Source: Thermoguttaceae bacterium
GTDB taxonomy: Bacteria > Planctomycetota > Planctomycetia > Pirellulales > Thermoguttaceae
Reading direction: 5' to 3'
DNA: 35,905 nucleotides
Assembly (NCBI GenBank): GCA_017435375.1
Contig: JAFSFF010000393.1
Location: 1-35,905 of the forward strand
Shown here: piece after piece, positions 28,757 to 33,908 of the stretch
Layout of the letters: the number at the start of each line of letters is the position of its first letter
Numbering within the stretch: the stretch's first letter is position 1
Position numbers and translations under genes: made by a program
Notes under the pieces: generated by a model
Seen by the model: the letters and a program-made list of their open reading frames with translations, nothing else
Database searches by the model: none
Told to the model about the DNA's origin: nothing

Positions 28757-31039
28757 TTAACGTATTTCTATTGTCGCTTTGCCGGTCGTCGGGAAAGCGA
28801 AGAAGAGCGTTTGCGACACGGCGTCCCAACGCCAATCGTCGAGCGGCGCGCCGTCGACCGCAACGCTTGTCGGCGCCGCGTCTAACTTCAAAAGCGAGAT
28901 AGCGTCGACTCCGGAAGTCGCCGTTGTTTCTAAGGTTATGACGCTCTTTTCGCTTTTTAACGATTCGACGCGACAACTTGACGCAAGTACGGCCGGCGTC
29001 GGCGCGGTTACTTTGTCGAGATCGAGAAGCCAAGCGCGTTCGCCCGGCGCAACTTCAACGCCGTCAAGCGGTTGCAACTTAGGATCGAAGAGATTAACGA
29101 AACGACCGGCGAGTTTCAACGGTTCCTTAGAAATCGATTCGGTCAATGTAGCGGCCAAGACGTAAGGCCCTCGGCGCTTCATAAAGTAGTTGCGCTCGAC
29201 GTATTGCCCGCCGGTCGCCGCAACCGCTTCCGCAACGAGACTTCGGTAGGCGTCGGCGTTTTCTTGCGAACGGTTGTAATAAGCCGGGCGAACGCGGTCG
29301 ACGTAAACCCAACCTTTGCCGAATCGATATTTGCCGCTTTCAGGACGCTTGCCCAAACCAAGCGATTCGAAGAGGTGTTCGCCGGGGCTCGCGTAAGAAA
29401 GAGAGCCCGTGTTCCACCAGTCTTTCGCCGCGTGGTAGGCGTCCGTTTCCGCGCCGACGTAAATTAAGACGCCGCCTCGGTTTACCCAATCGGCGAGAAC
29501 GGCGTGCAGACCCGGGCTCGACGGCTTTTGGTACTCGTAACTCAGCGATAAAACCTTGTATTTATCGAGATAGCCGGGATAACGGAGCGCGTGATCGAGA
29601 ACCGGGACGCCGACCGGGATTCCGCGTTTGATTAATGGCGTCGCAAGACCGAAGAAGTCGCCAAACGTTGCGATTTCGAGCTTTGAAGGACGAGTCGGAT
29701 CGGAAGCGTCGGGCGCGGCGCATTCGCGAACGGTCGGTTCGGCGCGCTGGAACATCGCGGAGTCGGCCAAGAGAACGCCGACGCCTTCGGTCGCGCCGTC
29801 GTAAGCGGCGTCGGCTTGCGCTATATCGCGAAGTTGTTGGAATGTAAGGGTTAACGTCGACGCGTAATCTTTCGGGATCGTTGTCGCGTCCGGAGAGCCG
29901 GCGGGAAAAGAGCCGAGGAAAACGCGACTCGGCCAAGGCGCGACTTCGTAATAATGCGTTTCCGACTGCATCAACGACGCGACTAAAGTGCTGAGATAAT
30001 TTGTTTTATAGTCGTTCCAATCGTAACGCGGATTGTCTTCGACCGGGTCGTTCAGGTAGTAAACGCGCTTGCCGGTTCCGCGAACCATCTCTTGCGTTAC
30101 ATTGTATTCGAGGAAGGCCGACTCGAAAGTGCGCTCCGCTTGAACTCCGTTGTAAATGTTGGAATGACGGGATGTTCCGGTCCAAACTTGCGCGATAATC
30201 CCGTCGATTCCCGGGAGGTCGAGAAGCGCCGATTCCGGGCTGACCATTCGGATTTGCGAGTAACTCAGCAGACTATGCGTCGCAATGTAAACTTTTAAAG
30301 GTCGGTTGTAAGTCCTTAGCGAATATTCTTTTAGCGACGCGCAAACTCGGTCGAGCAGGCGACGGTAAAGGTATTGCATCATCTTTGCCGAGCGGTACTG
30401 GGCGTCGCACGACGAATCGGGACGTTTCCACGACTCGTTGTAATACATTTGCCATTCGCGCTTGAAGGAGTCGCTAAAGCCTGCGAAAGCCCAAAGTTCC
30501 GGTTCTTCGAGGAAGAGCGTTTCAACTCCGGCGTCGACGACTTTTTTCAAGCGCGTTTCAAGGTAATCGCAGAACGCGATGCTCGGCACGAGATACGGCG
30601 TCGCCGGGTCGTGCATAATGCGCTCGCCGTCGGCTCGGACTTGCGCGTCGTCCCAATGCTTTAAGCCGTCGAACTTTCCGTCGAGGTAATCGTTGTAACT
30701 ACCCCAAGCGACGCCGGTCATTACGGCGACTTTCGAACCGCTTTCGGCGCGCCACTTTTCGAGCGTCGCGATCGCTTCGTCGGAAACGCCGTAAACCATA
30801 ACTGCGTCGGTTTTTAAGTCGAAACGAGCGTCGTAGCCGCCCGCTTGTTGGTACGTTGTCCGCTCGAGATTACGATCGGTAATCAGGTTCGGCGCAACGT
30901 TCGACGTTTCAAGGTTTGCGTCGGGAACTTGCGCCAATGCGGACGGAAAGGGCGTCGACGAAAGAACGGCGGTAAGCGAAACGAACGAGAGAGCGCGTTT
31001 CCAACGGCGGCGTTTAGCTTTGAAAGGGGAAAACGGCAT
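28757..31039 (-). CDS. Secreted hypothetical protein (760 aa), possibly a TIM-barrel glycoside-hydrolase-like fold
   Basis: It has a signal peptide (…ALSFVSLTAVLSSTPFPSALAQ). Its composition is protein-like and rich in W, Y and D, as in carbohydrate-active enzymes. No catalytic motif that I can name. Confidence 0.6.
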   Translation of the reverse strand: MPFSPFKAKRRRWKRALSFVSLTAVLSSTPFPSALAQVPDANLETSNVAPNLITDRNLERTTYQQAGGYDARFDLKTDAVMVYGVSDEAIATLEKWRAESGSKVAVMTGVAWGSYNDYLDGKFDGLKHWDDAQVRADGERIMHDPATPYLVPSIAFCDYLETRLKKVVDAGVETLFLEEPELWAFAGFSDSFKREWQMYYNESWKRPDSSCDAQYRSAKMMQYLYRRLLDRVCASLKEYSLRTYNRPLKVYIATHSLLSYSQIRMVSPESALLDLPGIDGIIAQVWTGTSRHSNIYNGVQAERTFESAFLEYNVTQEMVRGTGKRVYYLNDPVEDNPRYDWNDYKTNYLSTLVASLMQSETHYYEVAPWPSRVFLGSFPAGSPDATTIPKDYASTLTLTFQQLRDIAQADAAYDGATEGVGVLLADSAMFQRAEPTVRECAAPDASDPTRPSKLEIATFGDFFGLATPLIKRGIPVGVPVLDHALRYPGYLDKYKVLSLSYEYQKPSSPGLHAVLADWVNRGGVLIYVGAETDAYHAAKDWWNTGSLSYASPGEHLFESLGLGKRPESGKYRFGKGWVYVDRVRPAYYNRSQENADAYRSLVAEAVAATGGQYVERNYFMKRRGPYVLAATLTESISKEPLKLAGRFVNLFDPKLQPLDGVEVAPGERAWLLDLDKVTAPTPAVLASSCRVESLKSEKSVITLETTATSGVDAISLLKLDAAPTSVAVDGAPLDDWRWDAVSQTLFFAFPTTGKATIEIR

Positions 31040-31095
31040 CGGTGAAGCTCCTTAAAGGGTAAAGGGGGAAAGCGCCAAGGAGCGACGTTTGATTG

Positions 31096-31129
31096 TTTGA
31101 AAATCGTTGCGATTGCAATGGTTTTCAAA
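31096..31129. promoter_or_regulatory. Operator-like nested inverted repeat upstream of the 760-aa gene
   Basis: TTTGAAAA (31096-31103) and TTTTCAAA (31122-31129) are 8-nt inverted arms around an inner palindrome ATTGCAAT (31112-31119). The element lies 57-90 nt upstream of the minus-strand start at 31039. Confidence 0.3.
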
Positions 31130-31243
31130 AACGGCGTTCTCGACGATTAAAGGGCGGCGAGAGCGGCGACGAATCGGCGGTTGCCAACGTCTCCGCGTTC
31201 CGCTTTATTAGTTATAATCTAAAAATTTTTCGAAAAAAGCCCC

Positions 31244-31271
31244 TTGACAGTTTTTTTAAGCGTCATATATT
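31244..31271 (+). promoter_or_regulatory. Strong sigma70-type promoter of the aroF-pheA leader
   Basis: A consensus TTGACA (31244-31249), a 16-nt spacer, then TATATT (31266-31271), preceded by CCCC. Confidence 0.6.
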
Positions 31272-31406
31272 ATTAAACGTCGAGCGCAGCTTAGACGGAG
31301 GCGACGAATTTTTTCGACCGTCTTTTTGCGTTTTGACGTCGTTTGTTATTTATAAGTTATTGAGAGCAAACCTATTACAGCGTATACAAAATCGCCGATT
31401 TTTCGA

Positions 31407-31520
31407 ATGGCTTCCTTTACCTATTATTACAACGCGAAATCCTACGGCTTTAACTACGCCTTCCTCTTTACGGGCTTAGTCGAGTCTTGCGTTGCCGCAC
31501 AGGTTGGGAACCGTCGTTAA
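31407..31520 (+). CDS. Candidate Tyr/Phe-rich leader peptide (37 aa) of an aromatic amino acid attenuator
   Basis: The ATG at 31407 opens MASFTYYYNAKSYGFNYAFLFTGLVESCVAAQVGNRR, ending at TAA 31518-31520. F4, Y6, Y7, Y8, Y13, F15, Y17, F19 and F21 are aromatic. It lies between a promoter and a terminator directly upstream of DAHP synthase and chorismate mutase/prephenate dehydratase. No clear SD is present. Confidence 0.6.
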   Translation: MASFTYYYNAKSYGFNYAFLFTGLVESCVAAQVGNRR

Positions 31521-31554
31521 ACGTTGATTTTAGCGATATTCCGAAAATAATAAA

Positions 31555-31589
31555 GGCCCTGCGACAACGCGTTGCAGGGTCTTTTTTTT
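31555..31589 (+). terminator. Intrinsic terminator (attenuator) 30 nt upstream of the aroF start
   Basis: GGCCCTGCGAC (31555-31565) pairs with GTTGCAGGGTC (31571-31581) in 11 bp including 2 G-U pairs. The loop is AACGC and T8 follows (31582-31589). Confidence 0.8.
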
Positions 31590-31619
31590 GAGCCGAACGC
31601 CCCTGGGAAGGATTGAACG

Positions 31620-32630
31620 ATGATTATTTTGCTGAAAAAAGACGCTCGCGAAGACCAAATTGCGAATTTGACCGAACAGCTCAAAGAGATGGGGCTTGAA
31701 TCGCACCTCAGCGTCGGCGACGCGCACACGGTCGTCGGTTTGGTCGGCGATACGAAGAGCGTCGACGTCGATATGTTGAAGGCGCTCGAAATCGTCGAGT
31801 CGGTGCAACGCGTCCAAGAACCGTTCAAGCAAGCGAACCGTCGTTTCCACGAAGAGGATACCGTTGTTGAACTTACGAACGGCGTCAAAATTGGCGGCGG
31901 ACATTTTCAAACGATGGCGGGGCCTTGTTCGATCGAATCGGAAGAGCAGATTATCGAGATCGCGAAGGCGGTTAAGGCGGCCGGCGCGACGATTCTTCGC
32001 GGCGGCGCTTTCAAGCCGCGCACCTCGCCCTACGCTTTCCAAGGGCTTGGCGCCGAAGGGTTGCGGCTTCTCCTTAAAGCTAAAGAAGAAACGGGATTGC
32101 CGATCATTACCGAAGCGATGGACGCGTCGCAGCTTCCGCTCTTCGAAAACGTCGATATTATTCAAATCGGCGCCCGCAATATGCAAAACTTCGAGTTGCT
32201 CAAACAAGTCGGTAAAATGCGGAAACCGGTCTTGCTTAAGCGCGGTATGTCCAGCACGCTCCAAGAGTTGCTGATGAGCGCCGAGTACATTATGGCCGGC
32301 GGAAACGAGGACGTTATCCTTTGCGAACGCGGGATTCGCACCTTCGAAACGTATACTCGCAACACGCTCGACTTGGCCGCGATTCCGGTGTTGCGCCGCT
32401 TGACGCACCTGCCGATCGTCGTCGACCCGAGCCACGCCACCGGGGACGCGAAGCTCGTTCACCCGACTTCGCTCGCCGCGACCGCCGTCGGCGCCGACGG
32501 GCGTATTGTCGAAGTTCACAACAACCCGCCGAAAGCGCTCTGCGACGGCGCGCAATCCCTGACGCCGAACGCCTTTGCGACGATGATGAAAGACGTCGAA
32601 GCGATTCGCCCGTTCGCTTATCGCGGTTGA
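31620..32630 (+). CDS. aroF: 3-deoxy-7-phosphoheptulonate (DAHP) synthase, type I-beta, with an N-terminal ferredoxin-like regulatory domain
   Basis: A core like KDO8PS and DAHPS I-beta is present (GPCSIESEEQ, ILRGGAFKPRTSPY.FQGLG, KRG, VDPSH). An N-terminal extension of about 70 aa (MIILLKKDAREDQIANLTEQLKEMG) resembles the Thermotoga-type enzyme. GGAAGGA lies upstream of the ATG. Confidence 0.9.
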   Translation: MIILLKKDAREDQIANLTEQLKEMGLESHLSVGDAHTVVGLVGDTKSVDVDMLKALEIVESVQRVQEPFKQANRRFHEEDTVVELTNGVKIGGGHFQTMAGPCSIESEEQIIEIAKAVKAAGATILRGGAFKPRTSPYAFQGLGAEGLRLLLKAKEETGLPIITEAMDASQLPLFENVDIIQIGARNMQNFELLKQVGKMRKPVLLKRGMSSTLQELLMSAEYIMAGGNEDVILCERGIRTFETYTRNTLDLAAIPVLRRLTHLPIVVDPSHATGDAKLVHPTSLAATAVGADGRIVEVHNNPPKALCDGAQSLTPNAFATMMKDVEAIRPFAYRG

Positions 32631-32700
32631 GAAGAGCAACGAAAACGCGTCGTTTGAATTGTTTGAAAAACGGAGCGGTTAATTTGAAATCAAATAGCGG

Positions 32701-32736
32701 GCGGCGCGTTTTAGCTTCGACGCGAAAACGCGCCGC
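32701..32736 (+). other. Intercistronic 12-bp stem-loop between aroF and pheA
   Basis: GCGGCGCGTTTT (32701-32712) pairs with AAAACGCGCCGC (32725-32736). No U-tract follows. Confidence 0.5.
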
Positions 32737-32765: not shown

Positions 32766-33908
32766 ATGACGAACCTCGAGGAACAAAGAAATCGTATCGA
32801 CGCGATCGACGAACAAATTGTAAAACTTTTCCGCGAACGAATGGACGCCGCCGCCGAAGTCGCCCGCTACAAGAAGGAACACGGCGTTAAGGTGTTGTCG
32901 CAAGAGCGGGAACGCGACGTCGTGTATCACGCGGCGGACGCGGTCGGCGAAGAGCTGGAAGAATATGTTAAGTCGTTTTATAACGTTCTTTTGGATTTGA
33001 GCCGCGATTACCAACGGGAAAAAATCGATATTCCGTCGCCGTTTGTCGATTCGGTTCGCAAAGCCCTTGAGGAAACGCCCGGTTTCTTCCCGCATAAAGC
33101 GACCGTCGCTTGCCAAGGCGTCGAAGGCGCGTACTCGCAACAGGCTTGCGATAAGTTGTTCTCGATTCCGAAAATCTTCTATTTCAAGAATTTCGAAGGC
33201 GTCTGCCAAGCGGTCGACTCCGGAATGTGCCGTTACGGGATTCTGCCGATTGAAAATAGCTCCGCCGGTTCCGTCAACGCCGTTTACGACTTGACGCGCA
33301 AATATAACTTCCATATTGTTCGGTGTTTAAAGCTGAAAGTCGAACACAATCTCCTCGCGAAACCGGGCGCTAAATTGAGCGATATTCGCGAAATCGTGTC
33401 GCACGAGCAAGCCCTTCTTCAATGCGGCGAATTCTTGAAAAAACATCCGGAAATCAAAGCGACCGTTTGCGAGAACACCGCCGTCGCGGCGCGTATTGTC
33501 GCCAATTCGGATCGCGCCGATATTGCGGCAATCGCAAGCGCTTCCTGCGCCGAGATTTACGGGCTTGCGTCGTTGAGCGAACGCATCCAAAACAGCGACC
33601 ACAACTACACGCGCTTCATTTGCATTTCGAAGAATCTCGAAATCTATCCGGACGGCGATAAAATCACGTTCACGACGACGCTATCTCACCGCCCGGGCGC
33701 GCTTTACAACTTGATTTCGCGCTTTGCGTCGCTGGGGTTGAACGTCTGCAAAATTGAAAGTCGTCCGATTCTCGGCAAAGACTTCGAGTTCCGTTTCTAC
33801 TTCGACGTCGAGGGGACGCTTCGTTCGGAAGCGACGTTGAAGATGTTGGCGCAACTCGAAAGCGAAGGCGGATTCGAGTTCCTCGGCGCTTATCGCGAAC
33901 AGCTTTAA
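32766..33908 (+). CDS. pheA: Bifunctional chorismate mutase / prephenate dehydratase (P-protein) with a C-terminal ACT domain
   Basis: The AroQ chorismate mutase N-terminus reads LEEQRNRIDAIDEQIVKLFRERM. The prephenate dehydratase region reads VACQGVEGAYSQQA...TRF. An ACT-like tail follows (PGALYNLISRFASLGLNVCKIESRP). Confidence 0.9.
   Translation: MTNLEEQRNRIDAIDEQIVKLFRERMDAAAEVARYKKEHGVKVLSQERERDVVYHAADAVGEELEEYVKSFYNVLLDLSRDYQREKIDIPSPFVDSVRKALEETPGFFPHKATVACQGVEGAYSQQACDKLFSIPKIFYFKNFEGVCQAVDSGMCRYGILPIENSSAGSVNAVYDLTRKYNFHIVRCLKLKVEHNLLAKPGAKLSDIREIVSHEQALLQCGEFLKKHPEIKATVCENTAVAARIVANSDRADIAAIASASCAEIYGLASLSERIQNSDHNYTRFICISKNLEIYPDGDKITFTTTLSHRPGALYNLISRFASLGLNVCKIESRPILGKDFEFRFYFDVEGTLRSEATLKMLAQLESEGGFEFLGAYREQL

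Follow-up and report, generated by a model that had tools for sequence, protein, structure and literature searches.

The 35,905-nucleotide (nt) stretch of DNA described here (contig JAFSFF010000393.1 of assembly GCA_017435375.1, hereafter the window) belongs to a gut-associated genome of the Thermoguttaceae (Planctomycetota), within the PVC group of Planctomycetes, Verrucomicrobia, and Chlamydiae. It carries the gene pair aroF-pheA, which is preceded by a leader with the features of a ribosome-mediated transcription attenuator. The leader lies in a 580-nt gap between aroF (31620) and a divergent gene of 760 amino acids (aa) that starts at 31039 on the minus strand. The aroF product is a DAHP synthase by its Pfam domains (DAHP_synth_1, 5.5e-77; DAHP_snth_FXD, 4e-21), and the same upstream region, together with an aroF protein that is 99% identical, is found in two metagenome-assembled genomes (MAGs) labelled Thermoguttaceae in GTDB. 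The features of the leader and of the operon that it precedes are listed here in order, with "open reading frame" abbreviated as ORF, "untranslated region" as UTR, and "base pairs" as bp.

31209 to 31271, plus strand: promoter block, consisting of an A/T-rich upstream element (TTAGTTATAA..AAAAATTTTT.GAAAAAAG), the -35 hexamer TTGACA (31244-31249), and the -10 hexamer TATATT (31266-31271).
31278 to 31406, plus strand: 5' untranslated leader of about 130 nt before the mini-ORF, not conserved in sequence.
31407 to 31520, plus strand: leader mini-ORF of 37 codons, MASFTYYYNAKSYGFNYAFLFTGLVESCVAAQVGNRR, with its ATG at 31407 and its TAA at 31518-31520.
31416 to 31469, plus strand: candidate regulatory codons F4, Y6-Y7-Y8, Y13, F15, Y17, F19, and F21 (four Phe and five Tyr).
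31429 to 31437, plus strand: segment 1, ACAACGCGA, directly 3' of the YYY codons; can pair with the 5' half of segment 2.
31487 to 31499, plus strand: segment 2, TTGCGTTGCCGCA, in the 3' part of the mini-ORF; can pair with segment 1 or segment 3.
31513 to 31537, plus strand: hairpin of 9 bp that holds the stop codon of the mini-ORF and lies between segments 2 and 3 in the minimum-free-energy structures.
31552 to 31589, plus strand: intrinsic terminator (segments 3 and 4), with a 5' arm at 31552-31565, a loop at 31566-31570, a 3' arm at 31571-31584, and a T8 tract at 31582-31589.
31560 to 31570, plus strand: segment 3, the putative antiterminator target, made of terminator 5' arm and loop.
31620 to 32630, plus strand: aroF, a DAHP synthase of type I-beta that has a ferredoxin-like domain at its N terminus, the first gene that would be regulated.
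32766 to 33908, plus strand: pheA, chorismate mutase/prephenate dehydratase fusion (Pfam CM_2 and PDT), the second gene of the operon.

A preliminary description of this stretch, made from the letters alone, had proposed a near-consensus promoter, a short ORF rich in aromatic codons, a strong terminator shortly before the DAHP synthase gene, an octamer occurring twice, and mutually exclusive pairings among these parts, all of which were borne out. The promoter (TTGACA-16-TATATT, 31244-31271) matches the consensus at 11 of 12 positions. Residues 4 to 21 of the mini-ORF include nine Phe or Tyr, in a region with a G+C content of 34 to 46%. The terminator stem (31552-31584) has 14 pairs, including an A/U extension and an 11-bp G+C core; the hairpin alone has a predicted energy of -22.3 kcal/mol, and only 30 nt separate the end of the T tract from the aroF ATG. 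The octamer ACAACGCG is found at 31429-31436 and again at 31564-31571. The core of segment 2, GCGTTGCCGCA (31489-31499), pairs with 31560-31570 at 10 of 11 positions, the remaining position being a C95/A64 mismatch (RNAduplex, -16.0 kcal/mol), and 31430-31437 pairs over 8 bp with 31487-31494 (-11.2 kcal/mol). The 9-bp hairpin around the stop codon fits both conformations and is retained by RNAalifold in alignment A3 with a few double changes; it may act as a spacer or a pause site. The whole leader is more structured than shuffled sequences (z = -3.1 to -4.1), and the extended 1:2 duplex is about 3 standard deviations better than shuffles. The octamer itself is not enriched, since the window contains five copies against 4.65 expected and only the nearness of these two is unusual. 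As the duplex and octamer statistics of the window alone are modest, the single sequence is suggestive rather than conclusive, and the evidence taken here as decisive is comparative.

At equilibrium the full-length leader always favors the terminator, as in classical attenuators, so that only folding of the nascent transcript is informative. The nascent leader was folded with its 3' end at 31571, before the 3' arm of the terminator, and a ribosome was represented by a masked footprint of 30 nt. With no ribosome, the predicted probability of the helix between segments 1 and 2, P(1:2), was 0.94 to 0.97 and that of the helix between segments 2 and 3, P(2:3), was 0.01 to 0.05, whichever 5' boundary was used. 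A footprint centered on Y6-Y8, Y13, or Y17 raised P(2:3) to 0.92 to 0.98, with P(1:2) at 0 for footprints on Y6-Y17, and a ribosome at the stop codon returned P(1:2) to 0.88 to 0.93; results for a footprint on F21 were mixed. Segment 1 falls inside the footprint of a ribosome stalled at the YYY codons. The later aromatic codons lie within the loop between segments 1 and 2, and a ribosome there would therefore also be expected to block the 1:2 helix sterically. A switch from 1:2 to 2:3 on masking of the Tyr/Phe codons, the folding behavior that the proposed scheme calls for, is predicted for the window. In each of eleven planctomycete leaders folded in the same manner, stalling was predicted to give long-range pairing of the antiterminator type, with a median of 0.60 to 0.87. 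A cruder score that counted any pairing of the terminator 5' arm proved noisy and dependent on the cut site and was replaced by helix-specific probabilities and long-range pairing.

Planctomycete relatives of the leader were compared in two sets. The close set consisted of the window, L001 and L002 (aroF 99% identical), and L161 and L164 (96 to 97%); the more distant leaders, with aroF 65 to 94% identical, were obtained from a protein search, contig look-ups, and a genome scan. In the close set, the promoter, ATG, aromatic codons, stop codon (TAA or TGA), and terminator are all kept beside a scrambled 5' UTR. That region (31278-31406) cannot be aligned and contains indels among genomes with 96 to 99% identical aroF proteins, in which aroF has diverged by only about 17% at third positions, so that the 5' UTR evolves much faster than synonymous sites. 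Conservation restarts exactly at the ATG of the mini-ORF and runs through the terminator. The ORF bears coding signatures, with the ATG retained, a TAA-to-TGA change of stop codon, a synonymous TTT/TTC change at F4, and Y7 replaced by F in L161. Codons 6 to 24 are invariant in the window, L001, and L002 despite the divergence of aroF third positions, and most other substitutions in the mini-ORF among close relatives are at third positions. Substitutions in the terminator keep or strengthen its pairing (GU to GC, GC to AU). This is the pattern that should be expected of a translated regulatory ORF coupled to an RNA structure.

The preliminary description had looked to relatives for conservation of the mini-ORF and its aromatic codons, and a Phe/Tyr-rich mini-ORF followed by a terminator was present in all 12 further planctomycete-lineage leaders (aroF 65 to 99% identical). 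Among the distant leaders, peptide sequence and length drift and Phe and Tyr interchange, but the aromatic run and the downstream terminator are constant. Their peptides start MASNFYVAQYFGFSYAYFF.., MRSKFNFTQYFAYYFAFYF.., MIFGFYFTRYYYYAFY.., MPSVQNFTQYYYYFYFYRFW.., MKTSFPYICFFYYCWLF.., and MYAVQFYFYYY.., all rich in Phe and Tyr, and the leader peptides read as follows.

L162 (aroF 94% identical): MASNFYVAQYFGFSYAYFFTGAVGSRVAA
L163 (82%): MRSKFNFTQYFAYYFAFYFKGVAGPRIVALVEPVVSTTV
L168 (76%): MIFGFYFTRYYYYAFYRLGCDTKRLRIVA
L166, a Planctomycetia MAG (75%): MPSVQNFTQYYYYFYFYRFWRGMKMVAYCRFC
L165 and L167 (75%): MYL.VS.YSVPFYYYYSF...KL
L078, a Planctomycetaceae MAG (74%): MKTSFPYICFFYYCWLFCGYASVACIVAKESIARI
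L076, a Planctomycetia MAG (65%): MYAVQFYFYYYSRKDCQNFTA

Homologous leader ORFs in L162 (1298-1387, 29 aa) and L163 (1210-1329, 39 aa) had already been called as genes by automatic annotation; they have no Pfam match and are listed among the unnamed hypothetical micro-proteins of public protein collections.

The core of segment 2 is invariant in the window, L001, L002, L161, and L164, and in L163, L168, L166, and L078 it covaries with segment 3, in the 5' arm of the terminator. The paired sequences are given below, segment 2 before segment 3.

Window: GCGTTGCCGCA and TGCGACAACGC
L163: TTGTCGCG and CGCGACAA, an A-U pair having become G-C
L168: GCGTAT-T-GTCGC and GCGAC-ATACGC
L166: GCGTATTGTCGC and GCGACGATACGC, 12 contiguous pairs
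L078: TTGTCGCA and TGCGACAA

RNAalifold, applied to ten planctomycete leaders, recovered the terminator with GC/AU exchanges and the hairpin around the stop codon. The register of the 1:2 helix slips by one codon between lineages (alignment A3); column-wise counting was therefore dropped in favor of reading each sequence individually.

Outside the Planctomycetes, the nearest aroF homologues (61 to 73% identical) are almost all from gut and rumen Clostridia. A metagenome scan with aroF returned no relative above 71% identity and so contributed Clostridial leaders only. A short upstream ORF with at least five Phe, Tyr, or Trp per 8-residue window was found at 119 of 154 aroF loci, almost all of them Clostridial, in hosts that include Oscillospiraceae, Lachnospiraceae, Faecalibacterium, Ruminococcus, Christensenellaceae, and others. 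The Clostridial peptide typically reads M..LFAAEYFYFSFxFFxGKAxxxxAxK, and peptide length across the family ranges from 14 to 45 aa. With a 300-nt window, ATG-only ORFs, and a score of at least 5, such an ORF was present on the forward strand at 59 of 79 loci, compared with 1 of 79 reverse complements and 3 of 395 shuffled sequences. A terminator hairpin accompanies 115 of 122 such leaders (median, -19.6 kcal/mol). Of 81 Clostridial mini-ORFs, 62 have a GGAG, GAGG, or AGGA motif 4 to 18 nt before an in-frame ATG; at other ATGs the frequency of such a motif is 9.6%. Both the 2:3 and the 1:2 duplexes of the family are stronger than shuffled controls (Wilcoxon P = 3e-19 and 2e-13, respectively), and in 81% of 84 nonredundant leaders the terminator arm finds a better partner in the segment 2 region of the same locus than in regions taken from other loci (P = 5e-11). 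The roughly 120 Clostridial loci lie within L003 to L160 (e.g., L005:2768-2946, L082:1318-1472, L050, and L074), and cultured carriers include Angelakisella massiliensis and Ruminococcus sp. zg-924.

Covariation was assessed against 500 shuffles in an alignment of 30 Clostridial leaders (A2), in which three helices occupy consistent columns. Segment 1, TTTGCAGC, corresponds to the Phe-Ala-Ala codons that immediately precede the aromatic run; segments 2 and 3 are TTTYGCTGCAAA and GCAGTGAAA, respectively. Registers slid from these positions were just 23 to 54% paired.

Helix 1:2: 73.7% of cells paired; 23 double-change cells against 10.0 in shuffles; covariation score reached by 0 of 500 shuffles.
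Helix 2:3: 85.2% of cells paired; 11 double-change cells against 7.4 in shuffles; covariation score reached by 9 of 500 shuffles.
Helix 3:4: 91.5% of cells paired; 66 double-change cells against 18.6 in shuffles; covariation score reached by 0 of 500 shuffles.

Taken from sequence comparison and modeled folding, these results suggest, with a probability of roughly 80%, that the leader attenuates transcription of aroF-pheA by a classical ribosome-mediated mechanism responsive to charged tRNA-Phe and tRNA-Tyr. The attenuator logic of alternative 1:2, 2:3, and 3:4 helices put forward in the preliminary description is supported by nascent-transcript folding, by conservation, and by the covariation of segments 2 and 3, and the putative signal matches the pathway, the regulated genes encoding DAHP synthase and chorismate mutase/prephenate dehydratase. 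Transcription would begin at about 31278 from the conserved promoter of the sigma-70 type, and a ribosome would translate the 37-codon leader. With an ample supply of Phe and Tyr, the ribosome would reach the stop codon, segment 2 (31487-31499) would be covered or paired with segment 1 (31429-37), the 3:4 terminator (31552-31589) would form, and RNA polymerase would halt 30 nt short of aroF. When charged tRNA-Phe or tRNA-Tyr is scarce, the ribosome would stall at one of the nine Phe/Tyr codons, over segment 1 or between segments 1 and 2; segment 2 could then bind 31560-70, the 5' arm and loop of the terminator, so that termination would be blocked and aroF-pheA transcribed. The sequence elements, their conservation, the covariation of the helices in relatives, and the predicted conformational change are shown here; translation of the mini-ORF, ribosome stalling, and read-through responsive to Phe and Tyr are inferred.

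Several observations weigh against this interpretation. As the preliminary description had remarked, the mini-ORF has no obvious Shine-Dalgarno motif; none precedes it in the window or in its five closest relatives, and no more than weak motifs precede it in planctomycete leaders further removed. Most genes of the window, in contrast, do have one. No demonstration of transcription-translation coupling is known from Planctomycetes. The 2:3 duplex of the window, taken by itself, is better than shuffles by only about 1.4 standard deviations, and the off state at equilibrium is clean in only about 5 of the 11 planctomycete leaders folded; in L161, L164, and L162, the antiterminator is predicted at equilibrium even without a ribosome. 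The classical answer to an unclean off state, by analogy, would be kinetic trapping of the 1:2 helix, which forms about 70 nt earlier. The sequence TTGATT-16-AATAAT (31524-31551) resembles a weak promoter and matches the consensus at 9 of 12 positions; a transcript from it could initiate inside the 5' arm of the terminator, escape termination, and provide basal, unregulated expression of aroF.

Other explanations of the leader must be set beside attenuation. A factor acting in trans could throw the switch, for instance, a protein that binds RNA, an uncharged tRNA, or a small ligand, with the Phe/Tyr codons a by-product of a U/A-rich RNA motif. Such a factor would be consistent with the missing Shine-Dalgarno motif in the window and with the invariance of codons 6 to 24 in the closest relatives, which extends to third positions and suggests a constraint on the RNA; aromatic amino acid genes in Firmicutes are moreover usually under the control of T-boxes or proteins (PMC1262725). 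However, no T-box or other Rfam family matched, even at an E value of 10 or below, and what the family keeps is the reading frame and its Phe/Tyr content rather than the nucleotides of the aromatic run, Phe and Tyr interchanging and length varying while the stop codon is preserved. Together with the Shine-Dalgarno motifs before the in-frame ATGs of most Clostridial loci (62 of 81), this is overall a signature of translation and not of an aptamer or protein site, which makes a trans-acting factor unlikely. The mini-ORF might also influence aroF through Rho-dependent termination, mRNA stability, or aroF translation instead of through the intrinsic terminator, but such control is regarded here as very unlikely. 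That coupling is no given in Planctomycetes, and that the 130-nt 5' UTR and the 31513-31537 hairpin fall outside the attenuator scheme, would fit it; yet a strong canonical T8 terminator is conserved in all relatives, the segment that covaries with the 3' end of the ORF is precisely the 5' arm of that terminator, and the ribosome-binding region of aroF lies outside every conserved helix.

The promoter, ORF, and terminator also form a complete unit, which might be a stand-alone small gene for a hydrophobic, aromatic-rich micropeptide or a trans-acting small RNA, with aroF expressed by constitutive read-through or from a weak internal promoter and no sensing involved. The annotation of homologous ORFs in L162 and L163 by gene callers and the promoter-like site at 31524-31551 would agree with this, and some leader peptides, e.g., peTrpL, are described as acting in trans (PMC7298713). 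Yet the peptides share little in sequence or length (14 to 45 aa) beyond their Phe/Tyr content, the unit always stands directly before aroF, in two phyla, with only 30 nt from T tract to ATG, and a stand-alone gene would have no need of covarying alternative helices that overlap its terminator; it is accordingly held to be quite improbable. The remaining alternative, an ORF that arose by chance in A/T-rich intergenic DNA beside an ordinary terminator-like hairpin, draws on the A/T richness of the codons TTT, TAT, TTC, and TAC in a region of 34 to 46% G+C and on the lack of octamer enrichment in the window. It is effectively refuted by the strand and shuffle controls (59 of 79 against 1 of 79 and 3 of 395), by conservation of the ORF beside a scrambled 5' UTR in close relatives, and by the joint change of segments 2 and 3. 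In addition, the upstream gene is divergent, so that the hairpin at 31552-31589 does not terminate any upstream gene.

The preliminary description had also presented attenuation of an aro/phe operon as a new occurrence in a PVC-type genome. This holds insofar as no report from Planctomycetes was found, but not as an invention of the PVC group, since the same architecture is present at about 120 Clostridial loci. Neighbor-joining analysis of aroF proteins groups the window with L001, L002, and L078 in a single clade that lies inside the Clostridial radiation, and L076 stands apart beside Oscillospiraceae sequences, with 74.5% identity to L008. This topology suggests that transfer took place twice or more, or else once long ago with later exchange, and the nesting and the far greater Clostridial diversity point to a direction from Clostridia to Planctomycetes, the leader probably having entered together with aroF. 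Given the Clostridial architecture and the nested planctomycete aroF, the new occurrence is most likely a cassette acquired by transfer. On balance, it seems rather more probable than otherwise that gut Clostridia harbor a large, apparently undescribed family of dual Phe/Tyr attenuators on the type I-beta DAHP synthase gene, of which the window leader is the planctomycete branch, and that gene and switch passed together as one intact cassette into Planctomycetes on at least two occasions.

The surroundings of the attenuator contain further elements. A block of about 65 nt (31209-31271) that includes the promoter is almost invariant in the window and four species-level relatives, and both of its flanks diverge (alignments A1 and A4). 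The A/T-rich part of this block, 31209-31243 (TTAGTTATAA.CAAAAAATTTTTTGAAAAAAG), includes the AAAAATTTTT palindrome, abuts the -35 hexamer, and is near-invariant in the same genomes; it may function as an UP element or bind a transcription factor, adding a second layer of control. The 5' UTR of the window folds as two hairpins. The aroF-pheA pair is also present in L161 to L164, and L076 has an ORF of 380 aa at the position equivalent to pheA. Between aroF and pheA, the 135-nt intergenic region contains an 18-nt inverted repeat without a spacer (32701-32736, GCGGCGCGTTTTAGCTTC / GACGCGAAAACGCGCCGC, 89% complementary), which is not followed by a T tract; a third copy of its arm (AAAACGCGTCG) is found at 32642-32652. 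This repeat might be an element for mRNA processing or stability, a protein-binding site, or a second alternative-pairing switch before pheA. The divergent 760-aa gene (28757-31039, minus strand) has no Pfam match at an E value of 0.001 or below and is kept in position in L161 and L164 (767 to 769 aa, likewise without a Pfam match). The divergent promoter region between this gene and aroF contains a 15-nt inverted repeat (31096-31129, TTTGAAAATCGTTGC / GCAATGGTTTTCAAA) that is partly kept in relatives (TTTGATT...TTTCAAA) and has a weak, chance-level Rfam match to a plastid 3' UTR hairpin. A scan for tRNA and tmRNA genes found none.

The family would extend leader-peptide attenuation to new phyla, namely, the Planctomycetes and a large unannotated group in gut Clostridia, and, if it is functional, ribosome-coupled attenuation of amino acid biosynthesis would be routine in two phyla where it has been deemed absent or exceptional. 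The cell organization of Planctomycetes has been debated. A conserved attenuator needs a ribosome close behind RNA polymerase, and its presence therefore argues for transcription-translation coupling in Planctomycetes; if functional, the leaders would be indirect evidence for cotranscriptional translation in this group. Leader-peptide switches require only the RNA polymerase and ribosomes of the host and hence travel well, and the comparative data suggest the transfer across phyla of a gene together with its ribosome-dependent switch. In practical terms, the family offers an annotation rule for many gut genomes and could serve as a natural design for a Phe/Tyr biosensor.

Leader-peptide attenuation is textbook knowledge in Proteobacteria, is known in Actinobacteria, and has been seen as rare in Firmicutes, in which T-boxes predominate (PMC2965389, PMC1262725). 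According to Naville and Gautheret, such systems were essentially unknown beyond Proteobacteria and Actinobacteria until a His leader was described in bacilli (PMC2965389), and Seliverstov et al. state that aminoacyl-tRNA synthetase genes of Firmicutes use T-boxes rather than classical attenuation (PMC1262725). Neither the Clostridial family of Phe/Tyr leaders before aroF nor any attenuator in Planctomycetes turned up in literature searches, whose hits did not include the survey of attenuators in several phyla by Lopatovskaya et al. (2010, Mol Biol 44:128) and which returned only the cases from Corynebacterium glutamicum and Acholeplasma. A scan of the window and 20 related loci with Rfam 15 at gathering scores gave no match, and further scans, at gathering as well as permissive thresholds, that covered the window, its leader, and 23 related loci gave only subthreshold matches on the terminator, in the window to Leu_leader at 18 bits versus 50. 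The T-box model RF00230 had no match at an E value of 10 or below in 31000-31700, nor at 1 or below in nine related loci. Known leader families, T-boxes, and small RNA genes were rejected on the strength of these scans, and the element accordingly lies outside Phe_leader, the other curated leader families, and the T-box family. A T-box-like string, GGTTGGGAACCG (31502-31513), was rejected as well, being kept only in the nearest clade.

Among described systems, two share the position before a DAHP synthase gene. The C. glutamicum aroF leader peptide carries Phe-Tyr-Phe (PMC4046766) and thus, like the window leader, presents mixed Phe/Tyr codons before that gene, but it belongs to the Actinobacteria and has three regulatory residues only; the likeness is one of description. 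The uORFC-13-1 candidate of Brewer et al. (2021, PMC8632094) was identified computationally, with 24 representatives from Acholeplasma and environmental sequences only, and comprises a candidate Phe upstream ORF followed by an intrinsic terminator, exclusively before aroF, as in the window. By description, it has a U-run that encodes at least one Phe, whereas the present family is mixed for Tyr and Phe, far larger, and distributed over Clostridia and Planctomycetes. T-box riboswitches likewise choose between terminator and antiterminator in a 5' leader according to tRNA charging, as is proposed for the window; the window leader lacks Stem I, specifier loop, and T-box sequence, and it would sense through a translated ORF instead of by direct binding of tRNA. 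The closest parallel in logic is the E. coli pheA attenuator (pheL; Rfam Phe_leader), which, along with those of pheST, trp, his, and leu, uses the same four segments in 1:2, 2:3, and 3:4 pairings. As is proposed for the window, it combines a short ORF enriched for the cognate amino acid with control of the enzyme at the Phe branch point. The window leader has no sequence or covariance-model similarity to this type; it appears to sense Phe and Tyr codons interchangeably, has aroF as the first gene rather than pheA alone, and differs in its longer peptide (37 codons, with aromatic residues spread over 18), its 130-nt 5' UTR, its lack of a Shine-Dalgarno motif, and its phylum. The putative attenuator is a known mechanism in a new place and not a new mechanism.

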